Shown here piece after piece: positions 2,170 through 19,463 of a stretch of DNA of 24,364 bases (position 1 is its first letter; each line of letters begins with the position of its first letter). Under the pieces are notes generated by a model. That model made no database searches, was not told where the DNA came from, and was given only the letters and a program-made list of their open reading frames with translations. Position numbers and translations under genes: made by a program. The stretch comes from Candidatus Nanohalarchaeota archaeon. GTDB lineage: Archaea; EX4484-52; B79-G9. The stretch lies in contig JAFCBW010000002.1 of the NCBI GenBank assembly GCA_017610525.1, positions 1-24,364 of the forward strand, in the 5' to 3' direction.

Positions 2170-2386
2170 TTTATAGCAAACCACACCAAAATTTACTCAG
2201 CAGGCGATATACCCAATCACATGCTACTAACACACATTGGACCCCGGCATAAATATCAAAACACACCGGACTCACTGCACTCAAGTAGAGTACTGTCAAA
2301 ACCAATAGGAAATAATACGATTTCACACACAAGTAATACAACTAAACCCTAACACTCATTGAGGACCTATTATTAGTATACACATC

Positions 2387-19219: not shown

Positions 19220-19278
19220 CATGTGTGCGCTTGAGCGAAGCGAAACGCACCTAATGATCAACCTTTTACAAGGTTGAT
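19220..19278. repeat. REP-like dispersed element, copy 2, abutting the tRNA-Leu 3' end
   Basis: 9-bp hairpin 19257-19265/19270-19278 (GUAA loop on the minus strand), and a GTGCG/CGCAC stem enclosing GCGAAGC. Confidence 0.7.
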
Positions 19279-19463
19279 GCAGGGGAAGGGATTCGAACCC
19301 TCGAACTCCTACGAGACTGGATTTCTTAAAATCATCGCATACGCGCACGCATGCTCAGCACTCAAAAACTTATTGAATGTATTCTTGAGTCCAGCGCCTC
19401 TAACCCGCAAAAAAACAGGCAAAAAGCCTGCTAAAATACTTTGGCCAGCTGGGCGACCCCTGC
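19278..19463 (-). tRNA. tRNA-Leu(CAA) with two introns: 41 nt at 21/22 (19440-19400) and 61 nt at 37/38 (19383-19323); CCA not encoded
   Basis: Spliced sequence GCAGGGGTCGCCCAGCTGGCCAAAGGCGCTGGACTCAAGATCCAGTCTCGTAGGAGTTCGAGGGTTCGAATCCCTTCCCCTGCA folds as a class II cloverleaf. There is a TATA-like TTTTTAAG at 19492-19499. Confidence 0.92.

Follow-up and report, generated by a model that had tools for sequence, protein, structure and literature searches.

A probable half-mer box C/D guide for wobble 2'-O-methylation in the tRNA-Leu(CAA) anticodon intron of DPANN archaea

The anticodon intron of a tRNA-Leu(CAA) gene from a Candidatus Nanohalarchaeota archaeon carries a compact element in which a segment antisense to the tRNA's own anticodon loop is followed, one base downstream, by a predicted kink-turn. 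We are nearly certain that this element is real, conserved, and under structural selection. Judging from comparative sequence evidence, the anticodon intron probably works as a natural half-mer box C/D guide that directs 2'-O-methylation to the wobble nucleotide C34, either in its own precursor or in sister molecules. What is new here is the Leu host, together with a single kink-turn where the established guide intron of tRNA-Trp is bipartite. The gene lies in a stretch of 24,364 nucleotides (contig JAFCBW010000002.1), referred to below as the window. It belongs to a small, fragmented DPANN assembly that is 81% complete and is associated with samples of the marine sediment and cold-seep type.

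The tRNA-Leu(CAA) gene occupies positions 19278-19463 of the minus strand and is divided by two introns into exons at 19463-19439, 19398-19384, and 19322-19278; the terminal CCA is not encoded. When both introns are removed, ARAGORN recognizes a canonical 85-nt tRNA-Leu(caa), and orthologues of the gene in genus mates show 79-97% identity. ARAGORN and Rfam at default settings gave no match anywhere in the window; they missed the unspliced gene because its second intron, of about 40 nt, sits in the D-loop, and a permissive Rfam scan of the locus returned chance-level matches only. This non-canonical D-loop intron (19399-19438, minus strand, with boundaries placed to within a few bases) must be removed for the cloverleaf to form and was absent from the preliminary description of this DNA. 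It contains a GCAGGC/GCCUGU hairpin, which is present in the minimum free energy (MFE) fold, followed by a run of U. A third intron, located in the T-loop of the tRNA-Leu gene, is found in two genus mates (L004 in G004 and L006 in G006), so that these two genes contain three introns each, and the same probably applies to L005 (G002).

The anticodon intron comprises 61 nt (19323-19383, minus strand, as are all features of the gene), interrupts the tRNA at the canonical 37/38 site, and scores 79.9 bits against covariance model R1. The target strand, A31-G37 of the anticodon arm (19384-19390, with C34 at 19387), is paired in the MFE fold to the guide GUUUUUGAGU (19360-19369), which pairs with A31-G37 and with intron bases 1-3 to give a duplex of 10 bp, three of them G-U, spanning the exon-intron junction. 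The guide is followed by an unpaired G at spacer position 1 (19359; G, U, or A in relatives), the box D'-like CUGA (19355-19358), a 7-bp hairpin GCAUGCG/CGUAUGC with one G-U pair and the loop UGCG (19337-19354), and GAUGA (19332-19336), from which the segment UUUUAAGAA extends to the 3' splice site. The MFE fold of the precursor holds both the guide helix and the hairpin. The antisense has the register of a box C/D guide: position 1 is unpaired, the duplex begins at position 2, and the target nucleotide lies opposite position 5, with G19363, the fifth base upstream of CUGA, pairing with C34. A renewed reading of the coordinates, combined with ARAGORN on the spliced gene, bears out every sequence statement of the preliminary description, namely the intron, CUGA, the hairpin, GAUGA, the 10-bp guide, and the +5 base opposite C34.

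The boxes and the hairpin can be read together as a kink-turn, with the hairpin as canonical (C) stem, the GA of CUGA on the non-bulged strand, and GAUGA within the bulged strand (19328-19336). Read in this manner, GAU (19336-19334) corresponds to L1-L3, GA (19333-19332) supplies the sheared pairs, and the first base of the U run after GA faces the U of CUGA. All the sequence-level hallmarks of the motif are present, including CUGA, a covarying stem, the bulge GAU, GA, and the following U. An initial concern that the hairpin leaves no 3-nt kink bulge is thereby removed, since GAU serves as the bulge once the hairpin is taken as the canonical stem. The position of the C-like box at GAUGA was identified correctly at the outset, but its alignment as GCGAUGA with RUGAUGA was not retained: only the stem/bulge/GA register fits all instances. 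Many relatives carry AAUGA or UAUGA with a single GA, and therefore the sheared pairs must use that GA. The better match is AUGAU, the first five of the seven bases of box C, with the last two (GA) replaced by U.

A census of 100 unique instances, in which AU-GA was imposed by the search, describes the variable positions of the predicted kink-turn. Bulge position L1 is G in 69, A in 27, and U in 4; the base after GA, which faces the U of NUGA, is U in 72%; and the hairpin pair closing next to the box is of a standard type in 92. Alignment A1 shows NUGA without exception; elsewhere AUGA, UUGA, GUGA, AAGA, and CAGA occur, the D' side in relatives often being AUGA, AAGA, or CAGA. From these features we infer that the intron would kink and bind L7Ae; the kink would be absent if the hairpin were stacked coaxially on the GA pairs.

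The element thus appears to be a simple kink-turn with a loop capping its stem, a predicted topology that matches either a C'/D' motif or a terminal C/D motif open at its opposite side. The bipartite architecture of C/D plus C'/D' with two spacers was not found in this gene: the exons, the D-loop intron, and the 5' portion of the anticodon intron were all searched, and no further box pair was detected. The early observation that only one clear C/D pair is present is therefore accurate, and the RNA is a single kink-turn, or half-mer, rather than a full C/D plus C'/D' RNA. A guide for position 39 was also sought: downstream of GAUGA there is neither a box D nor antisense to the 3' exon, and this segment instead forms the 3' half of the splicing motif (19323-19328). 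There, UAAG (19328-19325) lies opposite C32-A35 with a C34-A mismatch, and AA (19324-19323) together with A38 (19322) constitutes the 3' bulge. A strict regular expression for bipartite C/D sRNAs, applied to this genome, produced one match, which is probably due to chance.

Comparison across the phylum supports a guide function. The covariance model was built from 11 hand-picked anticodon arms, with no Trp sequence included, and the searches at phylum, class, and order level all cover the same 42 species genomes. The model identified 39 instances in 30 of these genomes, distributed among tRNA-Leu(CAA) (17), tRNA-Leu(UAA) (1), and tRNA-Met(CAU) (21). In the class- and phylum-level search, the only additions were four weak matches, all of them tRNA-Trp(CCA) introns built on the same plan (L177 in G035, L178 in G007, L179 in G006, and L180 in G027), each with a single kink-turn and not of the bipartite euryarchaeal type. 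The Trp introns of genus mates measure about 100 nt, and the half-mer design does not account for their 3' parts.

Pairing in the guide helix reaches 97% in the hand-made alignment, where four of its seven pairs (positions 34, 36, 37, and i1) show compensatory changes and all five modelled hairpin pairs have changes on both sides. The structural support of this alignment was reached by none of 500 shuffles, and controls in which the register was slid were 17-43% paired, compared with 98%. The 39-row alignment gives 98.8% of cells paired, a figure biased toward structure since that alignment was fitted to the model. The pair at position 34 is always Watson-Crick, either C-G or, in Leu(UAA), U-A; G-U pairs occur in the 39-row alignment only from position 36 outward; and in the Trp introns position 31 carries G-C in place of A-U. 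The one-base spacing between guide and box is present in 39 of 39 instances in the phylum. Covariation of boxes and guide in orthologous introns had been named at the outset as a way of checking the element, and the outcome is positive: the guide tracks the anticodon in Leu(CAA), Leu(UAA), Met(CAU), and Trp(CCA), the hairpin covaries, and the spacing is invariant, so that the +5 base always faces N34. The comparative data accordingly favor the original reading of a box C/D-type guide for the intron's own C34, with a revised C box register and without the architecture of a full C/D RNA.

A second copy of the design is present in the same genome. Contig 49 (2248-2380, plus strand; L038:449-581) encodes an elongator-type tRNA-Met(CAU) with a 59-nt intron at the 37/38 site, in which the antisense is followed by a single base, CUGA, a hairpin of 5 bp, GAUGA, and a tail that ends with AAGAA. 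Its guide is complementary to the Met anticodon loop and departs from the Leu guide precisely at the positions that distinguish the two anticodons, with the +5 base facing C34. The gene was assigned to elongator Met, and not to Ile2, because the genome also contains a tRNA-Ile(UAU) and a separate initiator-like tRNA. The initiator-like tRNA-Met on contig 136 (3111-3217, minus strand) has an intron that starts with the box C-like UGAUGG right after the anticodon loop, in which neither a box D nor a kink-turn hairpin was recognized. The tRNA-Leu(UAA) gene of this genome (contig 124, 2673-2782, plus strand) contains a 24-nt anticodon intron without a kink-turn. The Leu(UAA) intron of G016 carries the guide, with A opposite U34.

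Several variants, natural losses among them, were observed among relatives. The Met introns L077 (G029) and L078 (G024) are longer, with a 93-nt arm, and contain two extra box-like strings (GAUGA, UAUGA, GAUGA) that may form a second kink-turn. The Leu(CAA) intron of G022 (L070) has a decayed box pair, and the family-mate G014 (L030) has an unrelated intron at 37/38. In family f4 (L008, L009, L014, L016, L017, and L023), tRNA-Leu(CAA) lacks an anticodon intron and the Met guide is kept; a search of this family for a free-standing Leu(CAA) guide gave matches at about chance level and no convincing sRNA.

The distribution beyond the phylum was surveyed in 185,579 species genomes, with a scan that required the Leu(CAA) anticodon arm, an antisense hexamer, NUGA, and RAUGA at a fixed helix-box spacing. 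The scan produced 98 stretches, of which 80 were listed; among those listed, approximately 70 are DPANN tRNA-Leu(CAA) anticodon introns, 63 have a T-loop motif nearby, and the remainder are bacterial chance matches without tRNA context. The metagenome-assembled genomes (MAGs) that contain these introns are labeled Woesearchaeota, Nanoarchaeota, Aenigmatarchaeota, Undinarchaeota, Nanohalarchaeota, and Nanobdellati. A Nanosalina genome, absent from the 42 phylum genomes, was also matched. Hairpin sequences are highly diverse among the listed introns, yet the stem always forms. Contigs labeled "uncultured Methanosarcinales archaeon" from binchicken MAGs (e.g., L081, L091, L097, and L110) carry the DPANN-type Leu intron, and the L081 intron is identical to that of the Woesearchaeota contig L152; the taxon labels of these contigs look unreliable.

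A ruler test was conducted without imposing the spacing, using 401 genomes of the DPANN phylum that holds one of the Woesearchaeota matches, and its results were read by eye. It recovered 35 Leu(CAA) introns with an antisense hexamer, 31 of which contain an NNGA-hairpin-NAUGA kink-turn motif. In all 31 the motif begins exactly one base after the hexamer, and no other distance was seen; the remaining 4 of the 35 have no kink-turn. In many relatives, the guide helix has only 6-7 bp, short of the 9-10 bp that performs best in vitro, and is closed by a loop of 3-4 nt.

Chance expectation was also evaluated within this genome. In 300,000 shuffles of the intron, a kink-turn-like motif arose in 429 and an in-register antisense of at least 7 bp in 172, and the two together never occurred. 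The strict motif NUGA-hairpin-RAUGAU is found three times in the 1.28-Mb assembly versus zero in the reversed control, and two of these occurrences lie in the anticodon introns of tRNA-Leu(CAA) and tRNA-Met(CAU). The third (NUGA-hairpin-GAUGAU) is located on the minus strand of contig 188, at about 2075-2110 in plus-strand coordinates, within coding-like sequence. No meaningful target was found for the bases upstream of it, and it is probably a chance occurrence.

Introns acting as box C/D guides have precedents. The euryarchaeal pre-tRNA-Trp intron (Pyrococcus sR50 and Haloferax volcanii; Clouet-d'Orval 2001, Singh 2004) is a box C/D guide (PMC7994747), with which the Leu intron shares the 37/38 site, a duplex across the exon-intron junction, C34 at +5 from box D', and, by prediction, competition with a bulge-helix-bulge. 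The Trp intron, however, is fully bipartite (C, D', C', D) and has two guides, for Cm34 and Um39, whereas the Leu intron has one kink-turn and one guide, with none for position 39. In Pyrococcus, four C/D sRNAs target position 34 of Leu(CAA), Leu(UAA), Met, and Trp, and only the Trp one is an intron (PMC7994747). The tRNAs that host the element in the phylum studied here are the same four. The predicted target nucleotide, the tRNAs, and the +5 rule are shared with the Pyrococcus sRNAs, but these are bipartite and, in their free-standing form, act in trans, whereas here the guide lies inside the intron of its own target and has a single box pair.

A parallel in layout comes from Nanoarchaeum equitans, for which Randau (2012) describes a 66-nt intron of elongator tRNA-Met from which a stable C/D-box-like RNA accumulates (PMC3491384). 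According to that paper, only Trp introns had been known as such guides before that work. As described there, the N. equitans intron resembles the Leu intron in being an anticodon intron of a DPANN archaeon with one box D, a GC-rich hairpin, and one mismatched box C, and the Met intron on contig 49, compared by description, has the same layout. The host in N. equitans is Met and here it is Leu, and the passages on N. equitans in that paper include no analysis of target or register.

The single box pair also has a counterpart in vitro. Half-mer C/D RNAs (delta-CD and delta-C'D') with an open-ended spacer direct site-specific methylation with Sulfolobus solfataricus proteins in vitro (Yang et al. 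2020, PMC7229835). In these RNAs, the first spacer position stays unpaired and duplexes reach at most about 10 bp, with 9-10 bp working best in vitro; whether half-mers function in cells was posed as a question by the same authors (PMC7229835). The Leu intron, with one box pair, an open-ended spacer, an unpaired position 1, and 10 bp from position 2, closely resembles these constructs and their duplexes of about 9-10 bp. It differs in that those half-mers are laboratory constructs, whereas here a hairpin closes the stem and the substrate is part of the same molecule, in cis. Our literature search, in which coverage of most subscription journals was lacking, found no published Leu intron guide. 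The suggestion that Leu would be a new host tRNA for such a guide consequently holds against the searchable papers, which describe the Trp intron and the suggested N. equitans Met intron.

Bacterial TrmL is a stand-alone Nm34 methyltransferase. The yeast Trm7-Trm734 complex is another (PMC6847430). Both enzymes make the modification proposed here, at the wobble position of Leu, Trp, and Phe tRNAs, but they are protein-only systems that use no guide RNA.

The preliminary description had pointed to L7Ae, Nop5, and fibrillarin genes as a check on the guide reading, and the result is mixed. A gene of the L7Ae family is present in this genome (G000; 104 bits). Neither fibrillarin nor Nop5 was detected in this 81%-complete genome or in the relative closest to it, which is 68% complete, but both occur in genus mates, with fibrillarin above the curated cut-off in five of seven and Nop5 in four of seven. 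Over the genomes searched, this one included, fibrillarin was detected in 36 of 41 and Nop5 in 35 of 41, mostly in adjacent genes. Matches in sequencing runs consisted only of contigs of DNA and of conserved exon fragments from other organisms; they included neither a spliced nor a circular form, and a candidate splice joint among them turned out to belong to another Leu tRNA gene.

Sequence and comparison show that the intron antisense of the unspliced pre-tRNA pairs with its own anticodon loop across the 5' splice junction, and that the kink-turn sits one base downstream; the mechanism that we propose builds on this arrangement. L7Ae would bind the kink-turn, Nop5-fibrillarin would dock on the L7Ae-bound form, and the enzyme would then 2'-O-methylate C34, which pairs with the fifth guide base counted upstream from the D'-like box. 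From the guide fold, the RNA would refold to the weaker bulge-helix-bulge, from which the endonuclease would remove the intron; since refolding is needed before splicing, methylation would precede splicing. It is equally possible that the guide would act between molecules or, once excised, on mature tRNA, because the first intron base (A) mimics A38, which would leave a duplex of 8 bp.

The two folds were compared by forcing the bulge-helix-bulge, which gave -15.5 kcal/mol versus -20.5 kcal/mol for the guide fold in Leu and -8.5 versus -16.1 kcal/mol in Met, so that the guide fold is 5-8 kcal/mol more stable than the splicing-competent one. The bulge-helix-bulge itself has three of four pairs in its central helix, owing to the C34-A mismatch, and a weak outer helix. 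Its C32-G and U33-A pairs are invariant among relatives. Position 34 is mismatched (C-A) in most C34 tRNAs, whereas a G in the intron or a U34 in the tRNA allows true pairing. The guide fold places the 5' splice site within a helix. Because this more stable fold buries the 5' splice site, a remodeling step must be assumed. This requirement counts against the guide reading, as do the single kink-turn, a box C side that is missing the terminal GA of RUGAUGA, the frequent D' variants and short guide helices of relatives, and the failure to detect fibrillarin and Nop5 in this genome and its closest relative.

The greater stability of the guide fold and its concealment of the 5' splice site also speak for the main rival explanation, a structural or timing device that binds L7Ae without methylation and hides the anticodon loop and the 5' splice site, controls or proofreads folding and splicing, or stabilizes the excised intron. 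The short helices of 6-7 bp in many relatives and the failure to detect fibrillarin and Nop5 in this assembly point in the same direction. Such a device, however, leaves unexplained the fixed helix-to-box distance that places the +5 base opposite N34 in every case, the coincidence of the hosts with the four position-34 targets of C/D sRNAs in Pyrococcus, and the strict Watson-Crick pairing at N34, with G-U tolerated only from position 36 outward. We consider it unlikely.

A different chemistry or target, such as C/D-type guided acetylation of C34 or an rRNA target in trans to which the anticodon fit would be secondary, appears considerably less plausible. In eukaryotes, C/D snoRNAs are reported to guide acetylation, and ac4C34 exists in archaeal tRNAs (PMC7668247). 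The guide nevertheless tracks its own anticodon in four tRNA species, including Leu(UAA), whose U34 is not acetylatable as cytidine, and no second guide or box pair is present. Finally, chance resemblance, or a decaying and non-functional relic of a former full C/D sRNA, is highly improbable, for although decayed versions exist in some relatives (the G022 Leu intron and the 4 of 35 in the ruler test) and the family-mate L030 has an unrelated intron, the shuffles never reproduced the element, which is conserved with compensatory changes across this phylum and other DPANN phyla.

A broader proposal, to which we assign roughly even odds, goes further. DPANN archaea would have placed the whole set of wobble-methylation guides, for Leu(CAA), Leu(UAA), elongator Met, and Trp, in the introns of the target tRNAs as cis half-mers; half-mer C/D RNPs would exist in cells; and the intron would serve as a methylate-then-splice checkpoint, in that the 5' splice site would stay hidden in the stable guide fold up to the point at which the RNP acts. 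This arrangement, if true, would explain the retention of introns in extremely reduced genomes and would give a function to anticodon introns that are conserved in very small archaeal genomes. It would also make half-mer box C/D guides natural and widespread, and it predicts an order of maturation, with methylation followed by splicing. A link between cis intron guides and the free-standing sRNAs aimed at the same four tRNAs in Pyrococcus would likewise bear on the co-evolution of guide RNAs and tRNA introns. In practical terms, both the gene and the element escape tRNA finders and Rfam.

The whole window, like all larger contigs of this genome, exhibits an extreme strand-specific composition bias. 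Pfam-validated genes on the minus strand have G or T at 86% of third codon positions, and plus-strand genes (33-1169 and 1138-2169) have A or C at 86-90% of theirs, so that codon usage depends on gene orientation. Long spurious ORFs overlap real genes both in the window and in the larger contigs.
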